Below are positions 8,333 through 62,732 of a DNA stretch of 64,000 nucleotides, piece after piece (the stretch's first letter is position 1; each line of letters opens with the position of its first letter). Below the pieces are notes generated by a model. It saw only the letters and a list, made by a program, of their open reading frames with translations. It was not told where the DNA came from and did no database searches. Source of the DNA: Arenicellales bacterium (GTDB lineage: Bacteria; Pseudomonadota; Gammaproteobacteria; Arenicellales; Poriferihabitantaceae); assembly GCA_965116595.1 (NCBI GenBank), contig OZ220708.1, positions 1,590,875 through 1,654,874 of the forward strand, in the 5' to 3' direction. The position numbers were made by a program, and so were the translations under genes.

Positions 8333-8340
8333 TCTTTGTC

Positions 8341-45384: not shown

Positions 45385-46371
45385 TCAGCGTAGAAAGGAG
45401 GCGGGGAGCACGGAAATTTTGCTGTCAACAGATTTGCGGGGCGATGTTGTCTTCCTCTTGTGCGTTTGCGGGTGCCAATTCGTAGCCAACTCTATAAATG
45501 CTGCACAAGCCGGGTTGATATAGCCGTATCGGTGCCAGATCAGGCTGACGGCGTGTTGCGGCAAATTGACCTCCAGTTTTATTGAATGCAGATTACTCCG
45601 ATTATCGATAATGCTCTTCGGCAGGATGGTAGCAAGCCTGCCGGACTCGACAAGTTCGAGAATGACACTGACCGAGTTGGTTTCGATCGCGATCTGCGGG
45701 GTGAGCGAATGCTTTTTGCAGTATTCATCGATGTGCTGGCGCAGGGCAAAGTCCCGGTTGAGCAACACCATTGAAAGCGGGGAGTCAGATTGCGGCGTCT
45801 TGCCCTGGGCAAACTTCGCAAGTGGATGTTTGTCGCCGACGGCGAGGAACAGCGACTCGTTGAACATGATTCGGGTTTCGAATTCCTGGACACGCACATT
45901 ATTTGCATCGGGTTGGGTGAACGCAATGCCGATGTCGATCGTGTCTTCAGTAACGGACTGTTCGAGGAATTCCTGAGACATTTCGAAGGTCGACAGGATA
46001 ATTCCGGGATGCTGATGGTGGAAGCTGTCGATCAGGTCATAAGTCAGGTGATCGGTTATCGGCGTCCAACCAACCCTTAACGTACCCCGGCTCAAATCAC
46101 GGACATCATTGACCGCACGTGCACCTGCGATCATCTCGGCACGCGCACGCTTGGCGAACCCATGAAAGATTTCACCTGCATCGGTCAGCCGCACGGTACG
46201 CCCGGGTCGGATTAGCAGTCGGGTCTGGAGCAAACCCTCCAGTTGCTTGATCTGTTGCGATAGCGAGGGCTGGGAAACGTGCAGGACCTCCGCTGCCCGG
46301 GAGAAACTGCCATATTCAACGATGGTAAGGAAATACTCCAATGCCCTCGGAAATATGATTTTTCGGTACAT
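45385..46371 (-). CDS. LysR-family regulator, CynR-like
   Basis: GSFSRAAEVLHVSQPSLSQQIKQLE; divergent from scnBAC. Confidence 0.9.
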   Translation of the reverse strand: MYRKIIFPRALEYFLTIVEYGSFSRAAEVLHVSQPSLSQQIKQLEGLLQTRLLIRPGRTVRLTDAGEIFHGFAKRARAEMIAGARAVNDVRDLSRGTLRVGWTPITDHLTYDLIDSFHHQHPGIILSTFEMSQEFLEQSVTEDTIDIGIAFTQPDANNVRVQEFETRIMFNESLFLAVGDKHPLAKFAQGKTPQSDSPLSMVLLNRDFALRQHIDEYCKKHSLTPQIAIETNSVSVILELVESGRLATILPKSIIDNRSNLHSIKLEVNLPQHAVSLIWHRYGYINPACAAFIELATNWHPQTHKRKTTSPRKSVDSKISVLPASFLR

Positions 46372-46510
46372 AGTGGTGCTGTTTTTCCCAGCCTGCCCCG
46401 GACATTCGGATGGTGACGGAGATTCAGGCTGGTAAATTATCTGAATTTTCTATAATATATGGCAATAATATCATTATTTCCAATAATCCACCACGTCAGG
46501 GTTTCATACG

Positions 46511-46542
46511 AGGATATAATTATATCCTATAGACCCGATAGG
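46511..46542. promoter_or_regulatory. Overlapping palindromes, candidate LysR box
   Basis: Perfect 18-bp AGGATATAATTATATCCT (46511-46528) and CCTAT-N7-ATAGG (46526-46542, fits T-N11-A). Confidence 0.6.
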
Positions 46543-46695
46543 AAAATATGACTTGATTATTGCATGGTCTTTAGGGTAGCTTTCTACTAAGAGTTTTATT
46601 TTCGACAGCGATGTTTCCGCCGGAGTGAGAACAACAAAAAGAAGGATTCATCGCCGGGCACACGAACCAGTACTTATTGAGGAGATTTTCCAGAC

Positions 46696-47127
46696 ATGCC
46701 TTCATCCACCCGAGATAGAATCATGCGGCATCTGGATATTGTCAAACAATTCCAGCCTGCCCTGCATGGCGAAACCCACGCTCCCTCTCCCGATATGGTT
46801 GATGACGACCACTATCGCGCCTACACGCGCTCGTCACATGACGTCGGTGGTGAACCGGATATCCCGATTCCCTGGGAAGAGAAGGAAGAGGAGATCTGGG
46901 AACACAATACTTTTGTCACTTGCGAGGTGCTGGCCTGGCGGGGTGTCTGGAATGCCGAGGAGCGGCGGCGGCGTCAAAATGTTGACGTCGGCCAGACGAT
47001 TTACCTCGGCTTGCCGTACTACGGCCGCTGGCTGATGACTGCGGCCCTGATCCTGGTCGACAAGCAATACGCTACCCTGAGCGAGCTTCAGGACAAGATT
47101 CACGAAGTGAGGCAACGTTATGAGTAA
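46696..47127 (+). CDS. scnB: Thiocyanate hydrolase beta subunit
   Basis: HDVGGE, EKEEEIWE.NTF.TCE.LAWRGVW.AEERRR.QN.DVGQT.YLG.PYYGRW, as recalled for Thiobacillus ScnB. Confidence 0.92.
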   Translation: MPSSTRDRIMRHLDIVKQFQPALHGETHAPSPDMVDDDHYRAYTRSSHDVGGEPDIPIPWEEKEEEIWEHNTFVTCEVLAWRGVWNAEERRRRQNVDVGQTIYLGLPYYGRWLMTAALILVDKQYATLSELQDKIHEVRQRYE

Positions 47128-47491
47128 TAAACCTGTTTACGATCGCGAACATCACGTCAAGAAAGCCACGGGGATCGGCGATCCCCAGTGTTTTGCCGGG
47201 GAAGCTGCGCCGGCCAGGTTCAAGGTGGGAGACCAGGTTCGGGTCCGTGACCTGCCTGATCTGTTCTATACCCGGACGCAAACCTACTTGCGAGGAACGG
47301 AGTGCACCGTTTCTGCGCTTGTCTATGAAAGCCCGGCCGCCGAAGACGAGGCCTGGGATAATACCGACAAGGCCGAATGGTTTTACAGCCTCGTCTTCAA
47401 GCAGAGCGATCTTTGGTCCGATTATCCGAAGACCTTTGGCGGCGATACGCTGGAGACTGAATTACCGGAGCGTTGGCTGGAGTCGGCCTAG
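47120..47491 (+). CDS. scnA: Thiocyanate hydrolase alpha subunit
   Basis: ATGIGDPQCF, F.VGD.VR..DLPDLFYTRT, YESPAAEDEA, DTLETE.PER.LE. Confidence 0.92.
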   Translation: MSNKPVYDREHHVKKATGIGDPQCFAGEAAPARFKVGDQVRVRDLPDLFYTRTQTYLRGTECTVSALVYESPAAEDEAWDNTDKAEWFYSLVFKQSDLWSDYPKTFGGDTLETELPERWLESA

Positions 47492-47552
47492 AGCCTGCAC
47501 CGGAACTCACACTTGCACGAATTGACGAAATAACTGTTGAGAGGAAAGATAA

Positions 47553-48248
47553 ATGTCTGACGATCACAAGCATGCGCCGATGGTTGATGAAGTAAGCGAA
47601 TTCGAAATTCTGGAAATCGCGGTTCGCGAACTTGCCATTGAAAAGGGCCTGTTTACCCAAGAGGATCACAATGCCTGGACCGAGTATATGCATACCCTCG
47701 GGCCGCTGCCGGCGGCACGCCTTGTGGCCAAGGCCTGGCTGGATCCTGAATTCAAAAAACTCGCGGTAGAGGATGGCGTCAAGGCCAGCCTTGAAGTCGG
47801 GATCGATTGGATCAAGACTATGCCGACACAGTTCGGTACCCCAAGTGACTATTGCAGTTTCCGCGTCATGGAAGATACGCCGACCCTGAAGCATGTCGTA
47901 GTCTGCACTTTGTGCTCATGCTATCCGCGCCCGATACTGGGCCAGTCTCCCGAGTGGTATCGTACGCCGAATTATCGTCGGCGCCTTGTACGCTGGCCCC
48001 GGCAGGTGTTATCGGAGTTCGGTTTGCAGTTATCGGAAGACGTGGAAGTCCGGGTGGTTGACTCCAATCAGAAATCCCGCTTCACCGTGCTGCCGGTTCG
48101 TCCGGAAGGGACTGAGGGCTGGACCGAGGATCAATTAACCGAAATCGTCACGCGTGATTGCCTGATCGGAGTAGCCTTGCCGAAACCGGGCAAGACCGCG
48201 AACGATCCTCGTCCGATCCGCAAGGCGCTGAAACCCTACAACCACTAG
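47553..48248 (+). CDS. scnC: Thiocyanate hydrolase gamma subunit (Co-binding)
   Basis: VCTLCSCYPRP: Co-type Cys motif with Arg where nitrile hydratases have Trp (YPWP). Confidence 0.95.
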   Translation: MSDDHKHAPMVDEVSEFEILEIAVRELAIEKGLFTQEDHNAWTEYMHTLGPLPAARLVAKAWLDPEFKKLAVEDGVKASLEVGIDWIKTMPTQFGTPSDYCSFRVMEDTPTLKHVVVCTLCSCYPRPILGQSPEWYRTPNYRRRLVRWPRQVLSEFGLQLSEDVEVRVVDSNQKSRFTVLPVRPEGTEGWTEDQLTEIVTRDCLIGVALPKPGKTANDPRPIRKALKPYNH

Positions 48249-48266
48249 ACAACGCGTGATGCCGAC

Positions 48267-48674
48267 ATGACCTTGATCAATCCCGAAAAGATTGCGCTTG
48301 ACGAGGAAATGCAGGCGCGCGATCTTGAAAACTCGCCGATCGACTTGCTGGAAGAGATCAGGCGGGATGGTAGTCATTGGGAAGACCTGGCATCGAAATG
48401 GGGAGTGGACAACCCGGACCCGCCCTGGAAAATATGGCTGGAAGCCACGTGCGAAGTCCTGGCAGATAAAAATTGTGCATTGCCAGCGCTGGAACGCCGG
48501 TGGGAGGAAGACGATCTCAGCGAGGAGCTGTACAAAGATGTTCCTTTTCCGGAACGGCAATTGTTGGCCCTGGCACATTCGATGATTCGACGCGGGTTGA
48601 TCGACGAGAAGGAACTGGCGACGCACAAAAAGGTTGTAGAAAAGCGACTGCACATGGTGGACCAGATAACTTAA
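48267..48674 (+). CDS. SCNase activator/metallochaperone (P15K-like)
   Basis: NHase-beta-like tail (PFPERQLLALAHSMIRRGLIDE.EL), about 15 kDa, directly after scnC. Confidence 0.75.
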   Translation: MTLINPEKIALDEEMQARDLENSPIDLLEEIRRDGSHWEDLASKWGVDNPDPPWKIWLEATCEVLADKNCALPALERRWEEDDLSEELYKDVPFPERQLLALAHSMIRRGLIDEKELATHKKVVEKRLHMVDQIT

Positions 48675-48707
48675 GAGGTTGCACCTAAATATTACGTTGA
48701 TCGAAAT

Positions 48708-49613
48708 TTGAATATTTCCGCAAGCGCCAGTGGTATCCACATCAGTGTCGAAGATCTCTCGCATCGATACACGCATAAATCGCCTTTTACATTCGAAAAG
48801 GTCAGCTTCAAGGCGGAACCGGGCGAAGCCCTGACCATAATCGGCCGGTCCGGATGTGGCAAGTCAACGCTGCTTCAGGTTATCGCGGGATTGTTGCCTT
48901 ATTCCATAGGCAAGGTTCAACTTGAGAATGAAGATGTCGTTGAACCCTCCTCGCGGTGGGTCATGATGTTTCAGGCTCCCCATTTGTTTCCCTGGATGAA
49001 CGTTCGTCAAAACGTCGGCGTGGGCCTGCGTTTTGCGAACTGGCCGAAGGAACGGATTACGGATCGTGTCGATGAGGCGCTTGAACTCGTCCACCTGGAA
49101 GAGTTTGCCAACAAGAACACTCAGGATCTGTCGGGCGGTCAGCAACAGCGTGTTGCGCTGGCGCGATCACTGGTCATGGAACCGGAGATGCTGCTCCTGG
49201 ATGAGCCTTTCTCGGCGCTGGATGCCTTCACCCGCGCCAGTCTCCAGCATGATGTACGCCAGATCGCCAAGCAACTGTGTATCAATGTTGTCCTGGTTAC
49301 ACACGATATCGACGAAGCCATCCTGATGGCTGACCGCGCCTTGGTGATGGCAGGTTCTCCGGGCAAGATCGTACATGATTTCAAGGTGGATCTCCCGGAC
49401 CCGCGTGAGCGCCGCGATCCGAAAGTGCAGGAAATGCGTACCAGGCTGATGGGGGTTTTCCACGATGCTACGCATGAGCAGGGCGAGGATGAAGGTGATT
49501 TACCGATAGTAGACGATGAACCGATAGTAACCGACTCGACAAAACTTGAGTTTTCGGGCCGCGAGTTTAGTCGGTCTAACTGGACCGAGGTGGCATCCGG
49601 CCGCCCAATTTGA
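48708..49613 (+). CDS. NitT/TauT-family ABC ATP-binding protein
   Basis: GRSGCGKST, LSGGQQQR, LLLDEPFSALD, THDIDEA. Confidence 0.95.
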   Translation: MNISASASGIHISVEDLSHRYTHKSPFTFEKVSFKAEPGEALTIIGRSGCGKSTLLQVIAGLLPYSIGKVQLENEDVVEPSSRWVMMFQAPHLFPWMNVRQNVGVGLRFANWPKERITDRVDEALELVHLEEFANKNTQDLSGGQQQRVALARSLVMEPEMLLLDEPFSALDAFTRASLQHDVRQIAKQLCINVVLVTHDIDEAILMADRALVMAGSPGKIVHDFKVDLPDPRERRDPKVQEMRTRLMGVFHDATHEQGEDEGDLPIVDDEPIVTDSTKLEFSGREFSRSNWTEVASGRPI

Positions 49614-49631
49614 CACTGTGGAGGAATCAGA

Positions 49632-50924
49632 ATGACTGATATGAAAAAAATGTACACGAAGCACGGTGATGGTATTCAAGATCCAAATCTCGTAATCGAG
49701 TGTGACCCCAACTTCAAGGGTATCCTTGGGTCGTCGGTCAATCGACGCGAACTGCTGCAACTGGGTGCTGCCGCAACTGCGGCCGGATTTACCTTACCAT
49801 CCTCTAGCCTGGCGCAGCAGACCAACTGGGATCCGGTGGTCAAGATCGGATACATTCCAATCACGGACTCGGCCGCGTTACTGGTTGCCCATGAATTGGG
49901 ATACCTGAAAGAAGAGGGTATCGATTCGGTCAGGCCGACGCTTATTCGAGGGTGGTCTCCGCTGGTAGAAGCCTTCGCCTCCTACCGCTTTAACCTGACT
50001 CACATGTTGATCCCGATTCCGATCTGGATGAGGTACAACAACAATTACCCAGTCAAAATCACCGCCTGGGACCACACCAACGGTTCTGCAATCGTGGTGG
50101 GCAAGAATACCGGTATCAACTCGCCGGCCGATTTCGGCGGCAAGCAGTTTGCAATGCCATACTGGTACTCGATCCACAACATTGTATCGCAACGTCTGTT
50201 ACGTGATGCCGGGATTACGCCAGTCATTCGTCCGCAGGATGCTGAATTGGGGCCGAATGAGTGTAACTTTCTTGTGCTGCCGCCGCCGTCAATGCCGCCG
50301 GCACTGGCTGCCGGCACGATTGACGGCTACTGCGTAGCCGAACCCTTCAACGCCCTGGGTGAACTCAAGGCAGGAGGCAAGGTGCTTCGGTTCACCGGTG
50401 ACGTCTGGAAAGGCCACCCATGCTGTGTGGTCGTCATGCACGAAGAGAACACGATGGATCCAGACCGGGCGGCATGGGCGCAGGGTATCCACAATGCCGT
50501 GGTGAGGGCACAGATCACGTTGGCCGAAAATCGTGAGGAAATGGCCGTGATGTTGTCACGTGACGGTCAGAAGTACCTGCCATTCCCGAAGGAGGTGATT
50601 GAGCGCGCCATGCTGTTCTACGATCCCGCCTACTACAACAATCCGCTTGCAATCAAGCATCCGGAGTGGGGTATGGACCGGATCAACTTCCAGGCCTGGC
50701 CGTATCGCTCGGCGACCGAACTTGTGGTCGATGATCTGAAGCAGACTCTCGTTACCGGTGATGATGCATTTCTGGCTGGCCTGACACCAAAAATGGTGGC
50801 CGACGATCTGGTCAATTACGAGTTCATCAAGAATTCACTCGAAGCCAACCCGAAATGGCGTAACGATGTGAGTGTTCCGAAAGGGGATGATCCCTATACG
50901 CGGACGGAAGTGGTTGAACTGTAG
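49632..50924 (+). CDS. NrtA/CynA-like ABC substrate-binding protein (Tat)
   Basis: NRRELLQ Tat motif, IGYIPITD, NGSAI, VAEPFN, W.GHPCC. Confidence 0.9.
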   Translation: MTDMKKMYTKHGDGIQDPNLVIECDPNFKGILGSSVNRRELLQLGAAATAAGFTLPSSSLAQQTNWDPVVKIGYIPITDSAALLVAHELGYLKEEGIDSVRPTLIRGWSPLVEAFASYRFNLTHMLIPIPIWMRYNNNYPVKITAWDHTNGSAIVVGKNTGINSPADFGGKQFAMPYWYSIHNIVSQRLLRDAGITPVIRPQDAELGPNECNFLVLPPPSMPPALAAGTIDGYCVAEPFNALGELKAGGKVLRFTGDVWKGHPCCVVVMHEENTMDPDRAAWAQGIHNAVVRAQITLAENREEMAVMLSRDGQKYLPFPKEVIERAMLFYDPAYYNNPLAIKHPEWGMDRINFQAWPYRSATELVVDDLKQTLVTGDDAFLAGLTPKMVADDLVNYEFIKNSLEANPKWRNDVSVPKGDDPYTRTEVVEL

Positions 50925-50964
50925 GCGCTGTCAGATCGCGTACATATAGATCCTGAATCTGGAT

Positions 50965-51777
50965 GTGACCATGGATCCAAGCCAGCCTAAGTTCTGGATC
51001 AAAAAGTACGGCCTCAAGTTATTTAACTGGGTGGCCGGACTTCTGATCCTGTTTTCGCTCTGGTGGTTGGGCGGTTTCCTGATCCATCTGAATCCCGACA
51101 CAACCCATTTTTCGGACTTCGGGCCAATCCCGACCCTCCAGGCTTTCCCCGAGCTCTGGGGAGATGGAACGATACTGGATGCAGTCATGTCCAGTGGCTA
51201 TCGGCTCGGTATCGGGTTGTTGATCGCCATCGCCTGCGGCATTCCGATCGGGATTCTAATGGGTCGCAGTCGTACGTTTCGTGAACTGAGTAATTCGCCA
51301 TTTCAGTTGCTGCGTATGATCAGCCCGCTGTCCTGGGAGCCGATTGCTGTTATCGTTTTCGTGACCTGGAACCAGGCGATCATATTCCTGATTGCGGTGG
51401 CCTCAGTCTGGCCGGTTGCCTTCGCAACAGCGGCAGGCCTGGCGAAGGTGGATCCGGCCTGGTTCAAAGTTGCCAGAAACCTCGGCGCCAGTCCCTGGCA
51501 CCGCCTGACGCTGATCATCATTCCGGCGATCACGTTCGATATGTTGACGGGAATCCGCGCTGCCCTCGGCGTCGCCTGGATCGTTCTGGTTCCGGCTGAG
51601 TTTCTCGGCGTAACTTCAGGTCTGGGCTATTCGATCGCGGATGCGCGTGAAACGCTGTCCTACGACTATCTGACCGCGATGGTATTAACAATCGGTTGCA
51701 TCGGCTACATTCTGGACAGTTCCTGTGTGCTGGCAATCAAGCGGTTCAGTTGGCACAGGGGTGATGAATCATCCTGA
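50965..51777 (+). CDS. NitT/TauT-family ABC permease
   Basis: PIGILMG, LR.ISPLSW.P, VARNLGAS, W..LVPAE.LG..SGLGY. Confidence 0.93.
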   Translation: MTMDPSQPKFWIKKYGLKLFNWVAGLLILFSLWWLGGFLIHLNPDTTHFSDFGPIPTLQAFPELWGDGTILDAVMSSGYRLGIGLLIAIACGIPIGILMGRSRTFRELSNSPFQLLRMISPLSWEPIAVIVFVTWNQAIIFLIAVASVWPVAFATAAGLAKVDPAWFKVARNLGASPWHRLTLIIIPAITFDMLTGIRAALGVAWIVLVPAEFLGVTSGLGYSIADARETLSYDYLTAMVLTIGCIGYILDSSCVLAIKRFSWHRGDESS

Positions 51778-51838
51778 CCCGACTTCAATGTTTTTTAATA
51801 ATCTAATCATATAACGAGTTAAATAGGAGAGAAGTAAA

Positions 51839-52024
51839 ATGAGTACTTTAGCAACGACATCGGCAATTAGCGTACCCACTATCGGCACTCGCGTGCTGAG
51901 TCAGCTGGTAGCTGCATTAATTCTGGGTTCAGTCATTCTCTATGGGGCGGGATTTGCGAATATGGGAGTCGCGCATAGTGCTGCCCATGACGCCCGTCAT
52001 TCACAGGGCTTCCCTTGCCATTAG
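51839..52024 (+). CDS. cbtB: Cobalt transporter subunit CbtB
   Basis: Single TM then HSAAHDARHSQGFPCH. Confidence 0.92.
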   Translation: MSTLATTSAISVPTIGTRVLSQLVAALILGSVILYGAGFANMGVAHSAAHDARHSQGFPCH

Positions 52025-52049
52025 TAGTCGCTGATTCCAGGTTTGTGCT

Positions 52050-52811
52050 GTGGTATTTCGGAAAGTCGTCTACTATTCGATTCTGGTTGGGATCGTAGCC
52101 GGCCTCGTCCTGACCGCGGCCCAACGTTTGCAGGTTGTGCCGATCATCTTTACTGCGGAGGTATACGAAAGTACGTCGATAGACACCGGATCAGGTGGGG
52201 CTGACGACCACGCACACTGGTCGCCGGAGGCAGGCATGCGGACTGTGTTAACCGCGTTTTCCAACGTGCTGACAGCTATTGGATACGCACTGATACTGCT
52301 GTCCGTGATGCTGGCTGTACAAACCTGGTCCCCAGGCAAGCCAAACCGACTTACCTGGCAGAGGGCGCTTGGTTGGAGCCTGGCAGGATATGCCATATTC
52401 TGGTTAGTGCCATCACTTGGTTTGCCACCGGAAATTCCTCTGCAAAATGCCGCCGAACTGCAAGATCGTCAGGTCTGGTGGGTAATCTGTGTCGTCTGTA
52501 CGGCTGCCGGGCTTGGTGGACTTGCTTTCGCGTCGACACCCTGGCGATGGCTGGCGCCACTGGTCATCGCGGTCCCTTACCTGATCGGCGCACCGCATCC
52601 GGAAGGTCCGATGTTTATTGGCCAGACCCCGGAATTCGCAGGGGCACTTGAGGCGCTTGCTGCTGAATTTTTCTATGCCACGGCCATCGTGAATGCCGTG
52701 TTCTGGCTGGTTCTTGGTTCGCTGGTTACCTGGTCCGGTGTCCGGATCAGCCGGAGTATGGCAACAGCGGACAAGGATTCTTCCAAACCCGCTACCACAA
52801 CCTCGGCTTAA
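52050..52811 (+). CDS. cbtA: Cobalt transporter subunit CbtA
   Basis: P.I..AEVYE, PSLGLPPEIP, RQVWW, GAPHP. Confidence 0.92.
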   Translation: MVFRKVVYYSILVGIVAGLVLTAAQRLQVVPIIFTAEVYESTSIDTGSGGADDHAHWSPEAGMRTVLTAFSNVLTAIGYALILLSVMLAVQTWSPGKPNRLTWQRALGWSLAGYAIFWLVPSLGLPPEIPLQNAAELQDRQVWWVICVVCTAAGLGGLAFASTPWRWLAPLVIAVPYLIGAPHPEGPMFIGQTPEFAGALEALAAEFFYATAIVNAVFWLVLGSLVTWSGVRISRSMATADKDSSKPATTTSA

Positions 52812-52825
52812 CTCAAGGAGTCAAA

Positions 52826-53218
52826 GTGACCAATAAGATCAGTATCATCTGTTTGTCGGGTGAACACGAAAAGCTGCAAATGGCGGCCATGGTGGCCTCG
52901 GTTGGAGCTGCATCAGGAGATGAAGTCACGGTTTTCTTTTCTATGAACTCGATGAAGTACTTTATCAAGGGCAATGAGGACACTGTCCCGGCCGAGGGTG
53001 AATTCGGCGCTACTGCCCTGAATCGTGAGGGTGTGCCCCCCTTTCGGGATTTGTTCCAACAGGCAGTAGAGCTTGGTGATGCGGCCTTGCTTCCCTGTTC
53101 GATGGCGATGGACCTGCTGGAATTGAAGGATGGTGATCTGATGAACGAGTTCGGACCGTCTACCGGGTTGACCAAATTCTTGAGCGATGCAGAGGGATCG
53201 CAAATTATAACTTTTTAA
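52826..53218 (+). CDS. DsrE/DsrF-like (DsrE2/E3-type) sulfur carrier
   Basis: V.VFFSM, PCSMAMDL conserved Cys. Confidence 0.82.
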   Translation: MTNKISIICLSGEHEKLQMAAMVASVGAASGDEVTVFFSMNSMKYFIKGNEDTVPAEGEFGATALNREGVPPFRDLFQQAVELGDAALLPCSMAMDLLELKDGDLMNEFGPSTGLTKFLSDAEGSQIITF

Positions 53219-53248: not shown

Positions 53249-53479
53249 ATGAGTGAGCATATCATCATTGATGCAAAGAACACCTATTGCCCGGGCCCAT
53301 TGATGGAGTTGATCCGGTGCGTGAAACAGGCGGAGGTCGGCGACGTACTCGAGTTGCTTTCGACCGACAGCGGCACTGCTAATGACGTTCCCGAGTGGGT
53401 CGCCAAGATCGGCCATGAAATTTTGAGCTCGGAGCAAATCGATGACGTCTGGCACGTCACGGTGAAAAAGGTCAAGTAA
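53249..53479 (+). CDS. TusA-family sulfurtransferase
   Basis: IDA...CPGP.M, LSTD.G..NDVP.W. Confidence 0.92.
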   Translation: MSEHIIIDAKNTYCPGPLMELIRCVKQAEVGDVLELLSTDSGTANDVPEWVAKIGHEILSSEQIDDVWHVTVKKVK

Positions 53480-53520: not shown

Positions 53521-54654
53521 ATGAAAATTCTGGTAGTGGGTGGCGGTACCGGTGGTACGATCACCGCCAACAATGTGGCCCGACGCCTGGCGTCGGAAAT
53601 AAGTGCAGGCAAGGCGGGTATCACGATGCTGTCCGCATCCGACCGCCACATGTATCAACCCGGCTTGCTGTACGTTGCTTTCGGGCAGATGATGCCTGAT
53701 GAACTGTATCGCGATCAGGCGAGCCTGCTTGAAAGTTCCATAGACTTTCATGTCGATCCGGCTGAAGATTTTGATCTTGACAATAACCGGGTGACGACGC
53801 AGAGCGGCCAGGTTCATGACTACGACGTACTTGTTATCGCAACCGGTTCGCGCATCATGCCGAAGATCATTCCCGGCCTCAACGAGGGCGCCGAAACCTT
53901 TTATACCGAGGAAGGGGCGATCAAGATGTTCAAGGCCCTGCGGGAATTTGAGGGCGGCAAGGTTGCTACCATCGTCGGTGTACCTCACAAGTGTCCTATT
54001 GCACCGGTGGAGGTAACTTTTTCGCTGCACGATTATTTCAAGTCCCGCGGCATTCGCGACAAGGTCGAAATCAAGTACCATTATCCGATCAACCGGATTC
54101 ACAGTATCGAAAATGTGGCTGCCTGGGCGGAGCCCGAGTTTCGACGCATGGGTGTCGAGTACGAAACCCTTTTCAATGTCGAGGAAGTCGACGTAGAAAA
54201 CAAGATTGTCAAGAGCCTCGAAGGTACCGAATATCAGTACGATCTGCTGATTTCGATTCCCGAACATAACGGGGTTGAAGCCATTATCAACAGCGACCTG
54301 GGGCAGGACGGCTGGATACCGACTGATCGGCACAAGCTGACGATGACGGGCTATGACAATGTCTATGTCGTGGGCGACACCACCGATCTGCCGGTCAGCA
54401 AGACAGGGTCAGCAGCTCACTTTCAGGCTGAAGTCATTGCAGAGAATATTGCCTCGATGATCAAGATAGGCACACCGGTCACAGAGTACAACGGCAAGGT
54501 GTACTGCTTTATAGAAGCCGGTTACGATAAGGCAACCTACGCAATGTTCAACTATGACTTCCCGCCCGATTTGAAAGAACCGAACAAATCCATGCACTGG
54601 TTCAAGGTCAGTTATAACAAGATGTACTGGACCAGTGTTCGCGGGCTACTGTAA
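53521..54654 (+). CDS. Sulfide:quinone oxidoreductase-like flavoprotein (short type)
   Basis: VVGGGTGG, KCPIAP, VGD...P.SK.G..AH, YCF; the two Cys lie at SQR-like positions. Confidence 0.8.
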   Translation: MKILVVGGGTGGTITANNVARRLASEISAGKAGITMLSASDRHMYQPGLLYVAFGQMMPDELYRDQASLLESSIDFHVDPAEDFDLDNNRVTTQSGQVHDYDVLVIATGSRIMPKIIPGLNEGAETFYTEEGAIKMFKALREFEGGKVATIVGVPHKCPIAPVEVTFSLHDYFKSRGIRDKVEIKYHYPINRIHSIENVAAWAEPEFRRMGVEYETLFNVEEVDVENKIVKSLEGTEYQYDLLISIPEHNGVEAIINSDLGQDGWIPTDRHKLTMTGYDNVYVVGDTTDLPVSKTGSAAHFQAEVIAENIASMIKIGTPVTEYNGKVYCFIEAGYDKATYAMFNYDFPPDLKEPNKSMHWFKVSYNKMYWTSVRGLL

Positions 54655-54665
54655 GGCAGACATCA

Positions 54666-55070
54666 ATGACCTCTGGACCAGAAAACGAAAACAGCAACAG
54701 CCTGGAAAAAAGTCTTGAAGGGTTGACCGAGATCGGTACCGTCATCGCTGCAGCCAAGGATGCGCTTAACGACGACATGGTTGCCAGAATGTCTTCGGCG
54801 TTTTCCGAGGGCGTCATGTTGCTTGATCGCCTGACCCGGAACCAGGCCCTCGTCCGGTTGCTGCAAAATCTTGATCGGCCGGAGAATCAGGCATTGCTGA
54901 ATAGCCTTTCGGATGCGCTTGGCAAGACCAGTATCGAGATGTCTTCTTCGTCGCCGGCAAAGGGAGGGTTCGGTAACCTGGTCAAGCAATTGAACGACCC
55001 GGATACGCAGGAAGGTCTGCGTATACTCGCCATGTTTGGTAAGCACCTGGGGGCGGGTATACGTAAATAA
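54666..55070 (+). CDS. DUF1641-family protein
   Basis: Helical; GGFGNLVKQLNDPDTQEGL motif; usual SQR neighbour. Confidence 0.75.
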   Translation: MTSGPENENSNSLEKSLEGLTEIGTVIAAAKDALNDDMVARMSSAFSEGVMLLDRLTRNQALVRLLQNLDRPENQALLNSLSDALGKTSIEMSSSSPAKGGFGNLVKQLNDPDTQEGLRILAMFGKHLGAGIRK

Positions 55071-55107: not shown

Positions 55108-55605
55108 ATGATTCACGTATACGAATTCTTCGGTGACAATCCAATTATCGGCGCCTTGATGCTGGATACGGATCGCCGATCTGCGTTGCACTCGATACGC
55201 GTCAGCAAGCCGCTGTTTCGCGCTCCTTTTATCGAGGTGGAACACTCCGACGGTACGCTCGAAGTCCATCAGTTTGCAAAGGATGACTTTACCAATCACT
55301 GGGCGGAGGCGAGGTTGCTGTTCACCTTGTTGACCGGCATGGAAATCAAAACGGATTTCAACCCGGGCGCCCTTGATCGGGGGGCGCAACGGCGGGCGGA
55401 AATTCTGCAGATTCGCGACCAGGGTATTGAGGCCTCAAAGCATCTATTCGAACAGGGTTTGTACGACGAGTTTATCGGATGCTATGGCCCGGATTGCAAA
55501 CATGTTCCTGAGGAGGCGGTTCAAATGCTGGGCGAAGCACGGCGCCGACTCGCGGATAGCCTGCCCCGGACCTCCCTGGACACCGGTTCAGGAGCCCGCC
55601 AATGA
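55108..55605 (+). CDS. Hypothetical protein
   Basis: GGAG RBS before ATG 55108; stop overlaps GST start (ATGA). Confidence 0.6.
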   Translation: MIHVYEFFGDNPIIGALMLDTDRRSALHSIRVSKPLFRAPFIEVEHSDGTLEVHQFAKDDFTNHWAEARLLFTLLTGMEIKTDFNPGALDRGAQRRAEILQIRDQGIEASKHLFEQGLYDEFIGCYGPDCKHVPEEAVQMLGEARRRLADSLPRTSLDTGSGARQ

Positions 55606-56204
55606 AACTGTACGATTTTGCCCGCTCCGGCAATTGCTACAAGATACGATTGTTTCTCTCGCTGATCAATATGCCGCACGAGACCGTGACGGTTGACCTG
55701 TTCAAGGGAGAGCATCGTGAACCCTGGTTTCTGGATATCAATCCTGAGGCCTGTGTACCGGTACTCGTCGATGGCGGAATGACGCTGCAGGATTCGGTTG
55801 CCATACTGGTATATCTGGCCAGGAAGTGGGGCGATGAGCATTGGTTCCCGAAGGAGGCGCTGGCGGTGGCGATGGTGACCCGCTGGCTGGCTTTCGAGCA
55901 GGGTATGATGCGCTACGGGTTGGCTCGGGGTCGATCCATCGCGCTGAACAACCCGGTCAAACTCGCTGGGACCGGCAACCTTGAAGAGTGCCGTCAGATC
56001 GGCGCTGGCGCGCTTAACCTGCTTGAAACACAATTGTCGCGAACGGTCTGGCTGGTCGGGGATGCCCACCCCACGATTGCCGATATCGCGTGTTATCCTT
56101 ACAGCCTGCTGGCCCCTGACGCGGGCCTGTCGCTGGAACCCTATCCGTCGATCAGGGAGTGGTTCAAGAAAATCGAAACCTTGCCGGGTTACCGGGTTAT
56201 GTAA
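55602..56204 (+). CDS. Glutathione S-transferase family protein
   Basis: SGNCYKIRL, NP...VPVL, DSVAILVYLA, PTIADIACYPY. Confidence 0.93.
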   Translation: MKLYDFARSGNCYKIRLFLSLINMPHETVTVDLFKGEHREPWFLDINPEACVPVLVDGGMTLQDSVAILVYLARKWGDEHWFPKEALAVAMVTRWLAFEQGMMRYGLARGRSIALNNPVKLAGTGNLEECRQIGAGALNLLETQLSRTVWLVGDAHPTIADIACYPYSLLAPDAGLSLEPYPSIREWFKKIETLPGYRVM

Positions 56205-56573: not shown

Positions 56574-57401
56574 TTGATGATCAGTGTAGACCCCCATTGC
56601 CGATCCCATTCGCTGGATGACGAAACCTCCGGGCGCCTGATCAGCCGGCTGGAAAGCCGTGCGCAGGATGACGTGTTCACCCGACTGTTCGACCGCTATG
56701 CCGACACCCTGGAATTTTCCGACGATACACTCACGCTGGAGGTGGGGTGCGGAACCGGGGCCATGATTCGCTCGCTGGTAAACAAACCGAATTTCCGCGG
56801 CCGCATTGTCGGTGTCGATCAGAGTCCGGCTTTCATCGATGCAGCGTCCGGCTTCGCCGAAAATGCCGGTATCACGGATCGGGTCGAATTTCATGTCGGC
56901 GACGCGCATAATCTTGATAGTGAAGACGGAAAATTCGATCTGGTCATCGCCCATACTGTGATCAGCCATGTTGTTGATCCGCAATCGGTTGTCAACGAGT
57001 GCGCCCGAGCCTTACGTCCTGGAGGAATGCTTGTTGTTTTCGATGGTGACTACTCGTCGCTGACCTACGGGTTTCCTGACGATCCGGAACTGGGACGGCG
57101 TATGGATCGTGCACTTGCCGAAACCACCTTCCACAATCCTTTGGTAATGCGGGATCTGATCAAGCTGTTGCCCGAAAGTTGTTTTGACATCGAAGATACC
57201 CTTGCCGAGGTCGTTTCGGAAATTGGGGAGGCCAGCTACTTCAAGTCCTTTGCCGACACTTACGCGCCCATGGTGGCGAGTGGTGACATGATGGACGCCG
57301 GTGAGGTGGAGCGTTGGGTCAATGGGCAGGCCGAACTGATTGCCAGCCGACAGTTTTTTGCCTCATGCAACTACTACACCTATCGGTCACGGCGCGTCTG
57401 A
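56574..57401 (+). CDS. Class I SAM methyltransferase (UbiE-like)
   Basis: LEVGCGTG, GVDQS, VGDAH, LRPGG. Confidence 0.9.
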   Translation: MMISVDPHCRSHSLDDETSGRLISRLESRAQDDVFTRLFDRYADTLEFSDDTLTLEVGCGTGAMIRSLVNKPNFRGRIVGVDQSPAFIDAASGFAENAGITDRVEFHVGDAHNLDSEDGKFDLVIAHTVISHVVDPQSVVNECARALRPGGMLVVFDGDYSSLTYGFPDDPELGRRMDRALAETTFHNPLVMRDLIKLLPESCFDIEDTLAEVVSEIGEASYFKSFADTYAPMVASGDMMDAGEVERWVNGQAELIASRQFFASCNYYTYRSRRV

Positions 57402-57880: not shown

Positions 57881-59071
57881 TTAACTCTTACCTGCCTGGT
57901 TGTATTGATCAAGGTCCTTTTTTGAAAGTCCTGGCAGGCAAATATCAGCGTAAGACGTAAGATGATCGAAAAACTCATGGAAATCCATCGTCACGTTCGA
58001 TTCATTGCCTTCGGACAGGAAGCTGTCAGCCAGTCGTTGGCGTAACTTGTCGCTTATTCCGTCAAAACCGATCTCCCTTGGAACATGTAAATGAACATCT
58101 GCACAGTGCGAACGGAAATCCTTGCTGACGCATGAAAAGTCATCCAGATGGTCAATCCACTGGCAGATGACATTACGCCATTTGCTCAAGGGTTCACCAG
58201 GCAGAACCTGTACACCGGGGTGGGTGAATTTCGCCAGATTGTAATAAATCCAGTTCCCACCTTCAGAGGCAGATGCCAGCACCCGGGATAGTGCGCCGCC
58301 GTCGTCGTGAACCGCAAGGCGCATGAACGCATCTTGCGTAAACTTGGTGGTCACCTCCTGGCGGATACGGTTACGCAAGTCTACTTCACCGGTATTCGTA
58401 TACGAGGTCAGGCGCTGCCATGAATGTTCGGTATTGGTTACAAAAAACCCGCCGTTGAATGGATTTGCATCGTCAGACAAGCCGTCGAGCTCGTCGAGGC
58501 TTTCGCGCAGAGTCGCCGGGACATCACCATCACCACTATGAGGCAACTGTCCGACACCGATGATCGTACCGTTGCCGTCAAGCTTGTCGTTTGCCAGGTG
58601 GGATGCAAGATCCACAGCCATGCCACTCCCGGTTCCACCCGCCAGATTGAAGCAAACCATAATCCTGGATGACAGTTCCGTTTGACCGATATGCCCGGCG
58701 AAATCTGTCAGGGCAGCGTTCAAAGCGCCTGCGTCATCATTGTAGTCGTCGTTGTAGATTTTCCTGGCTGCAGCACGGGAAAGATGCGACCCGGCTTCGG
58801 CTCCATCAAGCGAGACCGACTGGAAATGAAAATTCTCAGGTGGAATATCCAGTTCTTCGAGTCGTGTCTTCATGGCATCTGCATAGCCTATTGCACGATC
58901 CAGATCCGCGTCCCCCACATCCACCACAAGAGCGGCAACCCGTGCCCCTGGGTTCATTAGAATATCTTCGACTTCCCCGGTACGCAAAAGCCCGTCTACG
59001 TAACCGGCGCCGGAACGTCCAATACCCACAACATGCAGGCAATAAGGTGATTCATTAGCATTCGACATCAT
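57881..59071 (-). CDS. Tubulin/FtsZ-like GTPase-domain protein
   Basis: N-terminal VVGIGRSG, ALVVDVG, signature NLAGGTGSG; GGAGG RBS. Confidence 0.78.
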   Translation of the reverse strand: MMSNANESPYCLHVVGIGRSGAGYVDGLLRTGEVEDILMNPGARVAALVVDVGDADLDRAIGYADAMKTRLEELDIPPENFHFQSVSLDGAEAGSHLSRAAARKIYNDDYNDDAGALNAALTDFAGHIGQTELSSRIMVCFNLAGGTGSGMAVDLASHLANDKLDGNGTIIGVGQLPHSGDGDVPATLRESLDELDGLSDDANPFNGGFFVTNTEHSWQRLTSYTNTGEVDLRNRIRQEVTTKFTQDAFMRLAVHDDGGALSRVLASASEGGNWIYYNLAKFTHPGVQVLPGEPLSKWRNVICQWIDHLDDFSCVSKDFRSHCADVHLHVPREIGFDGISDKLRQRLADSFLSEGNESNVTMDFHEFFDHLTSYADICLPGLSKKDLDQYNQAGKS

Positions 59072-59352
59072 CTATCCTCCGATAGTCCAGATTGATACAA
59101 GTCAATAGTGTAGGGTGCTACTTTTGAGCATCCTCTTGAAACACACCACCAATAACCGCTATGGGCACTCTAATTCAATAGGGAATACTACCTATTTTAC
59201 CGATAATTCGTGCAGAATTTATACGCATCAATACTAGACAAGTAAATTAATGTGTGTTAATAAAAGATTGATGTAGGTGGTAGATAATTAGACAAAACGA
59301 ATAATTAAGAAGTCTAAGAGCGAAATACCCCAATTGGAACGTTTGTTCCTGT

Positions 59353-60522
59353 ATGCTTTTTGACAAGAAGGAAATAATTATGGGGTTAGTGAAAACCAGG
59401 ACATCCGCCCCTTGGCGGGTTGGTGTACTATTCTCTATAACGGGGAATACTGCGGTAATTGAGAAAACTCAATTAGCCGGGACTATGCTCGCTATTGAGG
59501 AAATCAATAACGCTGGGGGAATTCGTGGTCGTCCGCTTGAGCCGGTAGTCTACAATCCCATGTCGGATACGTCTGCTTTTGGTCGTTACGCCAAACAGTT
59601 GATGATCAAGGACGGCGTCAACACCATTTTCGGGTGTTATACCTCCAGTAGCCGGAAGTCTGTTTTACCGGTCGTAGAGCGACTCAATGGATTGTTGTGG
59701 TACCCTACGCTGTATGAAGGATTCGAGTTTTCCCCGAACATTGTTTACACCGGAGCGGCACCCAACCAGAACGTGACCGTGTTGTGCCACTATTTGATGA
59801 GGCGCTATGGAAGCCGTTTCTATTTTATCGGTTCTGACTACATATATCCCCGTGAGTTGAATCGCCTGATGAAGGAATTTCTTGGCCACAATGGTGGCTC
59901 GGTGGAGGGGGAGTCGTACTTGAGTCTCCGCGCCAGTCGGGGTGATTTCAATCCGATCATCAGTGAGATAAAAAAATGTCGACCCGACATAATTTTCTCA
60001 ACGGTGGTTGGAGAGACAACATCTTATCTGTATCAGGCCTATGCTGATTCCGGTCTCGACCCCAAGACCATGCCGATTGCAAGTCTGACCACGACAGAAA
60101 CAGAAATCCGGGATATGGGTTATGATGTCGGCGAGCATCATCTTACTGCTGCGAGTTATTTTCAAGGGATAAAGAGCGATACGAATTCTCAATTTATAAG
60201 AAAATACAAAGAACATTACGGCGAAGACGAGCCGACCAATGTTTGTGCGGAAGCCTCCTATTTTCAGGTGCATCTTTTTGCCAGGGCGCTGCATGAAGCT
60301 GGAACAATGGACACCGATGTCTTGAGAAAAATGGTTATGGAAACCGAATACACCGCACCCCAGGGAAAAGTCTCACTGGATTCGAGAAATGGTCACACAG
60401 CCCTGTGGTCAAGGATAGGACGCGCAAATCGTGAAGGTCAGTTTGATATTGTTTATGAATCATCAAAACAGGTTGCAGCAGATCCGTATCTGATTGGTTA
60501 TGGAAGGGTCGCTTCCGATTGA
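59353..60522 (+). CDS. AmiC-like cytoplasmic amide sensor (periplasmic-binding fold)
   Basis: FGCYTSSSRK, YPTLYEGFE, GSDYIYPRE; no signal peptide; start may be 59380. Confidence 0.85.
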   Translation: MLFDKKEIIMGLVKTRTSAPWRVGVLFSITGNTAVIEKTQLAGTMLAIEEINNAGGIRGRPLEPVVYNPMSDTSAFGRYAKQLMIKDGVNTIFGCYTSSSRKSVLPVVERLNGLLWYPTLYEGFEFSPNIVYTGAAPNQNVTVLCHYLMRRYGSRFYFIGSDYIYPRELNRLMKEFLGHNGGSVEGESYLSLRASRGDFNPIISEIKKCRPDIIFSTVVGETTSYLYQAYADSGLDPKTMPIASLTTTETEIRDMGYDVGEHHLTAASYFQGIKSDTNSQFIRKYKEHYGEDEPTNVCAEASYFQVHLFARALHEAGTMDTDVLRKMVMETEYTAPQGKVSLDSRNGHTALWSRIGRANREGQFDIVYESSKQVAADPYLIGYGRVASD

Positions 60523-60547
60523 TCATTAATCAAGGGATGCCAGCAGT

Positions 60548-61135
60548 TTGGGAACTGACAGAGAATATTTAAAGGAGTTCAGAAAACTGGAATTTCTGGT
60601 CGTAATTCCGTTTGATGAAGATGGTAACAATATTACGCGGGAACTGCGGCACCTCGGTGGTATCGTAAAGCAGCTATGGCCTGCCCCGGTGCCCTTGCCG
60701 ACGGAAGGTGGAATACTGATTTGCGAGCTTGTTCCTGATATTGCCGAGTGTACGTCCTGGCTGCCGGGAAATTCCCCGCTCCCATTCATATTGCATGTGC
60801 CCAGGAACCAGGAAGTCGATTTCAGGGAAATCCGCAATAGTGCACCCCATGGATTACTGTATTCCCCGGTAACTGAAACATCAATTGTTACAACAATTCT
60901 GCTTGCGCGGGACCAGTTCAACTATGAGCGGCGGTTGCGGTTTCGGATAAACAAGCTTGATGATAATCTAAGATCAATGCGTTCGGTGGAGAAAGCCAAG
61001 GCGATCCTGATGGAAGCCAGGAATATTGGTGAAAGTGAGGCATACCGGGTACTCAGACAAACTGCGATGGAACGCCGGATTACCCTGGGGACTATCGCAA
61101 AAGCAATTGTTGACTCTCACGAACTATTGAGGTGA
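60548..61135 (+). CDS. AmiR-like pseudo-receiver/ANTAR antiterminator
   Basis: C-terminal VEKAKAILM....E.EAY..LR..AM; follows the AmiC-like gene. Confidence 0.9.
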   Translation: MGTDREYLKEFRKLEFLVVIPFDEDGNNITRELRHLGGIVKQLWPAPVPLPTEGGILICELVPDIAECTSWLPGNSPLPFILHVPRNQEVDFREIRNSAPHGLLYSPVTETSIVTTILLARDQFNYERRLRFRINKLDDNLRSMRSVEKAKAILMEARNIGESEAYRVLRQTAMERRITLGTIAKAIVDSHELLR

Positions 61136-61158
61136 TAATACACAGGCTGCAGTCATAA

Positions 61159-61193
61159 CAACAATGACGTTGCAAAATGGCAACGGCGCCATT
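61159..61193 (+). promoter_or_regulatory. ANTAR-binding dual-hairpin RNA motif
   Basis: CAAC-AATGAC-GTTG and AATGGC-AACGGC-GCCATT: two stems with hexaloops carrying A1/G4. Confidence 0.85.
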
Positions 61194-61206
61194 ATAAAAT
61201 TGAGCG

Positions 61207-61260
61207 AAAACGCCCCATGAAGATGTCCGGTAAACCGGGCCTTTGGTGTGGGCGTTTTTT
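61207..61260 (+). terminator. Intrinsic terminator in the transporter leader (attenuator)
   Basis: AAAACGCCC...GGGCGTTTT followed by a T-tract. Confidence 0.7.
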
Positions 61261-61341
61261 ATTGGCTGTTACAGTTCAATATATTATAGTGAAAATTATT
61301 TGAATTATGGGGTTTTAAATTACAATCCAGGAGAATAGATT

Positions 61342-62529
61342 ATGAGTACGATTAACAGACGCAAGTTCCTCAAGTCAAGTTCGGTGGTCGCCGCAGCTGG
61401 TGCATTGCCGATGCCTTTTATCTGGCCTAAAGGCGCCAGCGCCGATACCGTAAAGATGGGAATCCTGCATTCCCTTACCGGTACCATTGCAATCGCTGAA
61501 AAATCGGTTGTCGATGCCGAATTGCTTGCAGTAGAGGAAATCAACAATGCTGGCGGAGTCATGGGGCAGCAAATCGAGGCTATTGTCGAAGATGGTGCAA
61601 GCGACTGGCCTACCTTCGCTGAAAAAGCGCGCAAACTGATCGACAAAGACAATGTGGCGGCAGTAATGGGATGTTATACCTCGGCCTCGCGCAAGGCGGT
61701 ATTACCGGTTTTCGAAAAACTGAATGGCCTGCTTTATTACCCGACCTATTACGAAGGACTCGAGATCTCGCCCAACATAATGTATACCGCACAAGAGGCC
61801 ACTCAATCATCGATTGCGGCGACCGAATGGTTATATGAAAACCGCGGAAAGAGTTATTATCTGGTGGGTTCGGACTATATCTGGCCACGCACCACGATCA
61901 AACTGTGCAAGATCACCCTCGACCGTCTCGGTGGCACCGTAGCAGGTGAGGACTACTACCCTCTGGGGGATATCGAGTTCTCTTCAGCGATCAACAAGAT
62001 CAAGGCAGCCAAACCGGATGTCATCATCAATTGTGTGGTCGGCGGCAGTAATGTGGCATTTTTCAAGCAATTGAAAGCAGCCGGTGTAATTGATAGTGGC
62101 ACGACGGTATTATCGCTCGCGGTCTCCGAGGAAGAGGTATCCGGAATCGGTAGCGAAAATACTGCCGGCACCCTGACTTGTATGAGTTATTTCCAGAGTC
62201 TGCAAAATCCGGCCAACCAGAAGTTCGTCAGTGCGTTCAAAAACAAATATGGCGCTGACCGGGTGACCGGTGATACACTTGAATGTGCCTATATTTCGGT
62301 ATACCTGTGGGCGATGGCGGTTGAGAAAGCACAGAGCATTGAAGTAGAAAAGGTAGTAGCGGCATCGTCTGAACTTGCAATCGACGCACCGGAGGGCAAT
62401 GTGAAGTTCCATGTTGACAATCATCATCTCTGGAAACACGTCAGGGTCGGCGAGTTTCTGCCTGATGGACAAGTGAATATGCTTTATGAATCACCTCTTA
62501 TTGAGCCTGACCCGTTCCCGAAACTGTAA
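61342..62529 (+). CDS. UrtA/FmdD-like urea/short-chain amide ABC substrate-binding protein
   Basis: Tat NRRKFLK, GILHSLTGT, ASDWPTFAEKA, TSASRKAVLP. Confidence 0.9.
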   Translation: MSTINRRKFLKSSSVVAAAGALPMPFIWPKGASADTVKMGILHSLTGTIAIAEKSVVDAELLAVEEINNAGGVMGQQIEAIVEDGASDWPTFAEKARKLIDKDNVAAVMGCYTSASRKAVLPVFEKLNGLLYYPTYYEGLEISPNIMYTAQEATQSSIAATEWLYENRGKSYYLVGSDYIWPRTTIKLCKITLDRLGGTVAGEDYYPLGDIEFSSAINKIKAAKPDVIINCVVGGSNVAFFKQLKAAGVIDSGTTVLSLAVSEEEVSGIGSENTAGTLTCMSYFQSLQNPANQKFVSAFKNKYGADRVTGDTLECAYISVYLWAMAVEKAQSIEVEKVVAASSELAIDAPEGNVKFHVDNHHLWKHVRVGEFLPDGQVNMLYESPLIEPDPFPKL

Positions 62530-62553
62530 AATTACAGTATGAAAGCAGTGTAT

Positions 62554-62654
62554 TGAAGGGTTGCAACATGCAACCCTTCAGGTACGCTCCTGAAACGTAT
62601 CAGTATACATTTGCCGGAGGGCGGTATTGGTTGCAACATGCAACCCTTCAGGTA
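62554..62654. repeat. Palindromic element present in two copies
   Basis: TGAAGGGTTGCA-ACA-TGCAACCCTTCA (62554-62580); 26-bp GGTTGCAACATGCAACCCTTCAGGTA at 62559 and 62629. Confidence 0.88.
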
Positions 62655-62732
62655 TTATCTTGAAACAGTTGATTTCCTGCTTCACCATGAGAATCAGATA
62701 GTGAGAATCATTTTGTTAGAGTCAGATTAATT

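Follow-up and report, generated by a model that had tools for sequence, protein, structure and literature searches.

A candidate thiocyanate ABC importer encoded within the thiocyanate hydrolase operon of a sponge-associated gammaproteobacterium

Thiocyanate (SCN-), a pollutant from the gold mining and coking industries, also supplies nitrogen and sulfur in nature. The enzyme that degrades it has been known for decades; to our knowledge, the route by which SCN- enters cells has never been shown. The scn gene clusters of Thiobacillus thioparus DSM 505 and Thioalkalivibrio thiocyanodenitrificans ARhD1 were drawn by Berben et al. (2017; PMC5328954, Fig. 3) and comprise scnABC, a gene for a hypothetical protein (P15K), a NitT/TauT transporter, and genes for a DsrE-like protein, TusA and SQR; a gene for cobalt uptake lies close by. 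The transporter is given no substrate in that study (Berben et al., 2017; PMC5328954), and a later one writes of 'the necessary transporters' (Huddy et al., 2021; PMC8061750). Here, we analyzed a stretch of 64,000 nucleotides from an Arenicellales bacterium (contig OZ220708.1, positions 1,590,875 to 1,654,874; hereafter the window), in which three genes of an ATP-binding cassette (ABC) transporter lie inside an scn operon (positions 48708-51777). With moderate confidence, we regard them as the likely genes of a NitT/TauT-group type I ABC importer for the uptake of thiocyanate into the cytoplasm; the identity of the ligand (SCN-), inward transport and the affinity are what we infer.

Like the published scn operons, the window combines a three-subunit cobalt-type thiocyanate hydrolase and a gene at the P15K position with a downstream transporter, DsrE, TusA and SQR. 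It differs from the clusters of Berben et al. in its sponge-associated gammaproteobacterial host, in having one permease gene instead of two, in carrying cbtBA inside the operon and in having no adjacent cynS. Because the layout had already been drawn, we regard the window as a further member of a known cluster; added here are counts of the linkage as seen from the binding protein and from scnC, the extent of the binding-protein clade, a lysine to cysteine change in the predicted pocket, co-transcription in situ, and variants in which the binding protein or the permease is the sole transporter component left. A second related arrangement is that of the CynABD-CynS operons of Synechococcus and Pseudomonas pseudoalcaligenes CECT5344 (PMC6627978), in which, as proposed for the window, an NrtA-family pseudohalide importer is co-transcribed with an ammonia-releasing cytoplasmic enzyme. 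The window has a cobalt-type thiocyanate hydrolase instead of cyanase and a LysR-type regulator instead of the sigma-54 CynF, and its binding protein, compared with NrtA, CmpA and CmpC sequences, appears to belong to a distant subfamily that lacks the oxyanion lysine.

Three co-directional open reading frames (ORFs) span the interval 48708-51777 exactly, in the order ATPase, binding protein, permease, flanked on the same strand by scnB-scnA-scnC-P15K upstream and cbtBA-dsrE-tusA-sqr downstream. An earlier note on this DNA, made from the sequence alone, had placed three ABC importer genes inside the scn operon and had known of no well-characterised SCN- ABC transporter. The former is borne out by the ORFs and their Pfam matches, except that the note listed the genes in the order binding protein, ATPase, permease; the latter agrees with our literature searches, which found no characterised SCN- transporter of any kind, ABC or otherwise, and no SCN- binding protein. 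The enzyme and transporter genes are:

46696..47127, plus strand: scnB-type thiocyanate hydrolase subunit, corresponding to the N-terminal half of nitrile hydratase beta (Pfam NHase_beta_N, 61 bits)
47120..47491, plus strand: scnA-type subunit, corresponding to the C-terminal half of nitrile hydratase beta (Pfam NHase_beta_C, 72 bits)
47553..48248, plus strand: scnC, catalytic, cobalt-binding gamma subunit with CTLCSC motif (TIGR03887, 380 bits, cut-off 291)
48267..48674, plus strand: 135-aa protein at the P15K activator position (conserved position)
48708..49613, plus strand: ABC ATPase of the importer, 301 aa, TTG start (Pfam ABC_tran, 122 bits)
49632-50924, plus strand: binding protein, whole gene, 430 aa (Pfam NMT1_2, 126 bits)
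49632..49814, plus strand: predicted twin-arginine translocation (Tat) signal peptide of the binding protein (read from the sequence)
49815..50924, plus strand: mature periplasmic binding protein, NrtA/CmpA fold, candidate SCN- binder (NMT1_2, AlphaFold2, Foldseek)
50965..51777, plus strand: permease of the importer, 270 aa (Pfam BPD_transp_1, 76 bits)

The linkage of the binding protein to the scn genes was examined in both directions. A search of one genome per species gave 211 relatives, of which the best 80, all of at least 70% identity, were taken with 10-kb flanks and scored by tblastn with the window proteins; 77 of these 80 loci were informative and three were too short. scnC was present in 76 of the 77, nearly always with scnB-scnA-scnC-P15K immediately before the ATPase, binding-protein and permease genes, and the nearest loci (binding protein 95% identical) belong to sponge-associated gammaproteobacterial metagenome-assembled genomes (MAGs), including 'Candidatus Poriferihabitaceae'. 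In the reverse test, 80 metagenome loci were collected with scnC as bait, 44 of which extend at least 3 kb downstream of scnC. The binding protein is present in 41 of these 44; all three transporter genes occur in 35 loci, ATPase and binding protein followed by the contig end in three, the binding protein only in three and the permease only in three. Clade and enzyme occur together in gammaproteobacteria, betaproteobacteria and some alphaproteobacteria, and conservation of the binding protein matches that of the enzyme subunits (median identity across loci 75%, compared with 75% for ScnB, 70% for ScnA, 81% for ScnC and 60% for P15K).

The sole exception among the genome loci, L012 from a Thiodiazotropha MAG, carries two copies of a DDE transposase (DDE_Tnp_1_4; L012:2609-3928 and 7721-9040). 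The nearer copy abuts the ATPase gene, and the transposases lie upstream, separating the transporter from the scn genes.

The scn-linked binding proteins form a clade of their own at 54-95% identity, the lower end of which was reached by sampling from the scnC side, and a search of 1.84 billion representative proteins found none between this clade and relatives of at most 48% identity. In a maximum-likelihood tree, 125 scn-linked proteins fall into one clade (Shimodaira-Hasegawa approximate likelihood ratio test, SH-aLRT, 92), and three more (L121, L125, and L152) form a second small clade at an unresolved node with non-scn relatives, while NrtA and the CmpC regulatory domain are distant (branch length 8.85). 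The partial sequence of PDB entry 3un6 was placed inside the scn clade with a branch length of 10, which we rejected as an artefact of the long branch and the partial sequence. No scn genes were found beside the non-scn relatives of at most 48% identity, several of whose contigs are short; together with the 76 of 77 genome loci, this means that the clade is essentially restricted to scn loci, a point that the earlier note had singled out for checking.

Five of these relatives (L081, L082, L165, L166, and L167; 35-48% identical) have the same pocket residues as the scn clade and represent an 'HxCC' subfamily of NMT1_2 proteins. The non-scn relatives also occur in cassettes of ATPase, binding protein and permease, with neighbours that differ from those of the scn loci: a TauD-like dioxygenase together with another NMT1_2 protein; NifH-like and NifK-like genes; and, in three cases, an ACAD-fold protein of approximately 355 aa, two of which match SfnB weakly and the third other ACAD-fold families. 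As TauD-like, ACAD-fold and nitrogenase-like genes adjoin them, these neighbourhoods suggest sulfur scavenging, and the HxCC subfamily may be a family of sulfur-scavenging importers. The binding protein of the window is not closer to the characterised NrtA/CmpA members than to other subfamilies, as NrtA, CmpC and CmpA (PDB) score 32-66 bits against it and the non-scn HxCC relatives 200-390 bits.

The ATPase sequence contains a Walker A motif (GRSGCGKST), a signature motif (LSGGQQQR) and a Walker B motif (LLLDEP). These motifs, a BPD_transp_1 permease and an exported NMT1_2 protein are features expected of a NitT/TauT-group type I ABC importer. Matches to more specific models remained low: the nearest NCBIfam models for the ATPase (PotA, SaoA, NtrCD, and TauB) were all under their cut-offs, and the permease scored 113-125 bits against SaoP, TauC and NtrB, all under the equivalog cut-offs. 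The permease is likely to act as a homodimer, since the window has a single permease gene; many relatives, for example L012, have two. The C-terminus of the ATPase (49460-49613) is an acidic low-complexity tail of approximately 50 aa that is not conserved among relatives, which align to only 0.8-0.9 or so of the ATPase length. This tail does not correspond to a regulatory domain of the NrtC or CmpC type.

Inspection of the N-termini of ScnB, ScnA and ScnC revealed no signal peptide, and the thiocyanate hydrolase is therefore cytoplasmic. A permanently anionic substrate must be taken up actively against the membrane potential; with a cytoplasmic enzyme and an anionic substrate, SCN- has to be imported. 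The N-terminus of the binding protein contains R38-R39 followed by a hydrophobic stretch and a likely cleavage site SLA|QQ, and is predicted from these features to be a Tat signal; some homologues match Pfam TAT_signal.

Ahead of the twin-arginine motif, residues 1-37 (49632-49745) include a conserved stretch of approximately 35 aa (K-H-G-D-G-I-x-D-P...Y-D-P-L-F), in which D17, L20, D25, P26 and F28 are conserved. Proteins of the main scn clade have this stretch, and the outgroups lack it. In other lineages (for example L066, L125, and L147), different extensions occupy this place, some of them rich in Cys and His: MCILCD...HH in Rhodocyclales, HGCDCCGGDHVH in L125 and MCLMCD in outgroup P0127. 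For a Tat signal, a conserved n-region is unusual, and the stretch might bind a chaperone or a metal.

Expression was assessed on assembled contigs, not reads, from four metatranscriptomic runs of a related strain, mapped at a threshold of 88%. Contigs from the four metatranscriptomes, approximately 94-95% identical to the window, tile the region from 46676 to about 54900. Single RNA contigs reach from scnB into the ATPase gene (46676-49078), cross the junction of ATPase and binding protein (49540-50281), and join binding protein, permease, cbtB and cbtA (50291-52518). The operon, including the transporter, is thus co-transcribed from scnB to sqr in a close relative. RNA contigs in three runs end at 46676 plus only 12 further letters, and because they end together the 5' end likely lies about 30 nt before the start codon of scnB (46664-46676), which makes this position a candidate transcription start for the whole operon. 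No metatranscriptome contig covered 45300-46623, and the 10 kb upstream are almost uncovered. The missing RNA over the LysR-type regulator gene is weak evidence, as this gene has diverged further in relatives, which may put it below the 88% threshold, and the coincident contig ends are the better argument for a 5' end. No RNA contig covered the GST-like gene after the operon (55602-56204). With the upstream region and the GST-like gene silent and the operon and genes farther downstream covered, the pattern is consistent with RNA and not with contaminating DNA, although divergence may explain part of the upstream silence. In a scan for promoters and terminators, matches in the operon were no more numerous than in shuffled sequence. 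The same contigs also cover 57881-64000, where a tubulin-like gene is found along with the gene of a Peripla_BP_5 (UrtA/AmiC-type) binding protein and those after it.

An AlphaFold2 model of the binding protein, built from a 70-sequence alignment that included outgroups, had a predicted local distance difference test (pLDDT) score of 94.8 and a predicted template modelling (pTM) score of 0.92. The model predicts an NrtA/CmpA-like C-clamp fold with a C-terminal extension of approximately 100 aa. Foldseek ranked 3un6 first, followed by NrtA 2g29 (template modelling score, TM, 0.72), the CmpC and NrtC regulatory domains, CmpA 2i48 (TM 0.71), and then SsuA and TauA. With NrtA 2g29, CmpA 2i48 and the NrtC/CmpC domains (8wm7, 9uai) the modelled protein shares two lobes in a C-clamp and a C-terminal subdomain (TM 0.70-0.74) at approximately 20% sequence identity. 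The best match in both sequence and structure, 3un6 (80 bits, Foldseek E 9e-21), is a structural-genomics entry for the zinc-bound, ligand-binding part of an ABC importer of Staphylococcus aureus that has in common with the window protein the CC pair, W, H and an AEPF motif; it differs in being approximately 100 aa shorter, in its identity of only 22% and in having no scn context.

Nitrate is bound by W102, Q155, H196, G240 and K269 in NrtA and by W319, H408, G452 and K481 in the CmpC domain (PMC13204499; PMC13287603). Specificity for nitrate is set by the lysine (K269 in NrtA, K481 in the CmpC regulatory domain), the place of which is taken by Glu in CmpA (PMC13287603). Mapped by HMMER alignments onto the window protein, the NrtA ligands correspond to:

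NrtA W102: window W108, kept
NrtA Q155: window S152, changed
NrtA H196: window H182, kept
NrtA G240: window A236, changed
NrtA K269: window C265, changed

The aligned positions thus do not reproduce the NrtA/CmpA ligand set, be it that for nitrate or, with Glu, that for bicarbonate. C264 and C265 (codons 50421-50426) lie in a GHPCC motif and are invariant in 128 of 128 clade members. As the specificity lysine (Glu in CmpA) corresponds to the invariant Cys265, a nitrate-type pocket is disfavoured; against a bicarbonate-type pocket the change argues more weakly. The pocket-equivalent residues are D79, R106, W108, H148, N150, S152, W178, S180, H182, N183, A236, E237, F239, H262, C264 and C265. 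In the alignments they are a trait of the wider HxCC subfamily, the Cys-Cys pair included, and because the non-scn relatives have the same residues, specificity for SCN- cannot be read from the sequence alone. The pair was considered as a signature of the scn clade or of thiocyanate and rejected, since it is also found in non-scn relatives and in 3un6. Fixed in the scn clade only are A82 (Pro in outgroups, NrtA and CmpC), Q172, C211, K260-G261, W356, A361, and part of the C-terminus.

The earlier note had described an NrtA/CynA-like, thiocyanate-binding protein of a family that binds small anions. As to the label, the fold agrees, and the nearest relatives do not, being the HxCC subfamily beside TauD-like, SfnB-like and nitrogenase-like genes. 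As to the ligand, the scn-restricted clade speaks for thiocyanate, while the supposed kinship with oxyanion binders did not hold, the NrtA lysine is absent and the pocket is the same as in non-scn relatives.

These pocket residues and neighbourhoods also bear on the substrate. A pump for a small organosulfur compound (an organic thiocyanate or isothiocyanate, a sulfonate, or a thioether), feeding the same operon or sulfur scavenging, would account for the genes adjoining the nearest relatives with the same pocket residues, for the top NCBIfam match of the binding protein (SsuA_fam, 70 bits, under cut-off), and for the presence of SsuA and TauA among the Foldseek matches. We think it unlikely, as the one invariant partner of the clade is an enzyme characterised as acting on inorganic SCN-, with scnC above the equivalog cut-off, and as certain residues fixed in the clade set it apart from the outgroups. 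A classical importer of the CynABD, NrtABCD or CmpABCD type, for cyanate, nitrite/nitrate or bicarbonate, that is merely co-located with scn is in our view quite unlikely: three of the five nitrate ligands are changed, NrtA, CmpC and CmpA score far below the HxCC relatives, the NtrB and NtrCD models remain under their cut-offs, and the genes are linked to scn in an operon without cynS. What this reading has in its favour is the NrtA/CmpA fold, the CynR-like regulator, the adjacency of cynS and scn in Thiobacillus (PMC5328954), and the architectural precedent of the CynABD-cynS operons (PMC6627978). The Cys- and His-rich cleft also recalls a metal site, with C264-C265, H148, H182 and H262 invariant, a nearest solved structure, 3un6, that has the CC pair and was deposited 'with Zinc bound', and Tat export being typical of cofactor-loaded proteins. 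That the pump supplies cobalt or zinc for enzyme maturation is nevertheless extremely unlikely, as CbtAB is already there for cobalt and NitT/TauT systems are not known as metal importers.

Several observations weigh against import of thiocyanate by this system. The pocket-equivalent residues are conserved in non-scn relatives of 35-48% identity as well, and no positively charged residue was identified as a substitute for the nitrate-binding lysine. CynR of E. coli senses cyanate, and the regulator here is CynR-like. Transcription was seen in a related strain, and in assembled contigs instead of reads. Three loci (L131, L133, and L145) keep only the permease, for example L131:8813-9655, and six scn loci of one marine water-column lineage (L118, L120, and L146-L149) have the binding protein without ATPase or permease in the contig. 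The latter, which keep scnBAC and P15K, would suit a binding protein that acts mainly as a periplasmic SCN- sensor or buffer, or as the partner of another membrane system, with the ABC genes dispensable. Such a role seems very unlikely given that all three transporter genes occur in fixed order in 35 of the 44 scnC loci and in all genome loci except two short contigs; the ATPase and permease partners of these lineages may, moreover, be encoded elsewhere. Import of thiocyanate is favoured because no rival explains the near-obligate pairing with scnBAC as well.

As to the gene content of these variants, the loci of the marine lineage consist of scnBAC, P15K, a 467-aa binding protein (for example L147:5511-6914), cbtA, dsrE and sqr. 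In L131, L133 and L145 the permease gene directly follows scnC, and P15K, ATPase and binding-protein genes are absent; these may be decayed or rearranged operons.

For a thiocyanate importer, the following sequence of events can be envisaged. The binding protein would be exported in folded form via the Tat pathway, capture SCN- in the cleft between its lobes and dock on the permease dimer, and the ATPase dimer would power import. In the cytoplasm, the cobalt enzyme ScnBAC would hydrolyse SCN- to carbonyl sulfide (COS) and ammonia, with P15K maturing the enzyme and CbtAB supplying cobalt; DsrE, TusA, SQR and the DUF1641 protein would process the sulfide or sulfane sulfur arising from COS. The divergent CynR-like LysR regulator probably turns on the operon in response to a pseudohalide. 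A more specific and, in our judgement, unlikely proposal is that the scn-linked binding protein is the first dedicated SCN- receptor, recognising its soft, linear ligand, unlike other anion-binding proteins, through the Cys264-Cys265/His cluster and not through Lys or Glu, and that the HxCC proteins are an overlooked class of binders of small sulfur-containing molecules. The cluster could act as a vicinal disulfide or via a soft metal ion loaded before Tat export; CmpA, for its part, uses Ca2+ with bicarbonate.

The remaining features of the operon region are:

45385..46371, minus strand: LysR-type regulator, CynR-like, divergent (NCBIfam NF008416 (CynR), 315 bits, cut-off 277)
46372..46695, plus strand: promoter and 5' untranslated region, with an apparent RNA 5' end near 46664 (metatranscriptome contig ends)
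51839-52024, plus strand: cbtB (Pfam CbtB, 64 bits)
52050-52811, plus strand: cbtA (Pfam CbtA, 131 bits)
52826-53218, plus strand: DsrE-like gene (Pfam/NCBIfam matches)
53249-53479, plus strand: tusA (Pfam/NCBIfam matches)
53521-54654, plus strand: type III-like sqr (Pfam/NCBIfam matches)
54666-55070, plus strand: DUF1641 gene (Pfam/NCBIfam matches)

A homologue of the CynR-like regulator sits divergently upstream of scnB in most related loci. The 135-aa protein at the P15K position gave no family match in the Pfam and NCBIfam scans, and its gene is kept directly after scnC in nearly all related loci. For CbtAB, we propose uptake of cobalt for the cobalt enzyme. Beyond the operon, the window encodes a 275-aa S-adenosylmethionine (SAM) methyltransferase (Methyltransf_11; 56574-57401), which in 40 fetched loci is found upstream or downstream of the scn cluster at a distance of no more than 10 kb and whose identity among beta- and gammaproteobacteria is approximately 50%. 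Berben et al. (2017; PMC5328954) mention a methylase next to the Thiobacillus scn cluster.

The scn-linked clade travels with the enzyme, is equally conserved and is co-transcribed with it in situ, which makes it an obvious candidate for the SCN- importer. If this is true, it would fill the uptake gap in the thiocyanate pathway and could serve in biosensors as a module that binds SCN- specifically, in the way that NrtA is already used for nitrate. It would also help to explain how the symbionts of sponges and lucinid clams live on trace thiocyanate.

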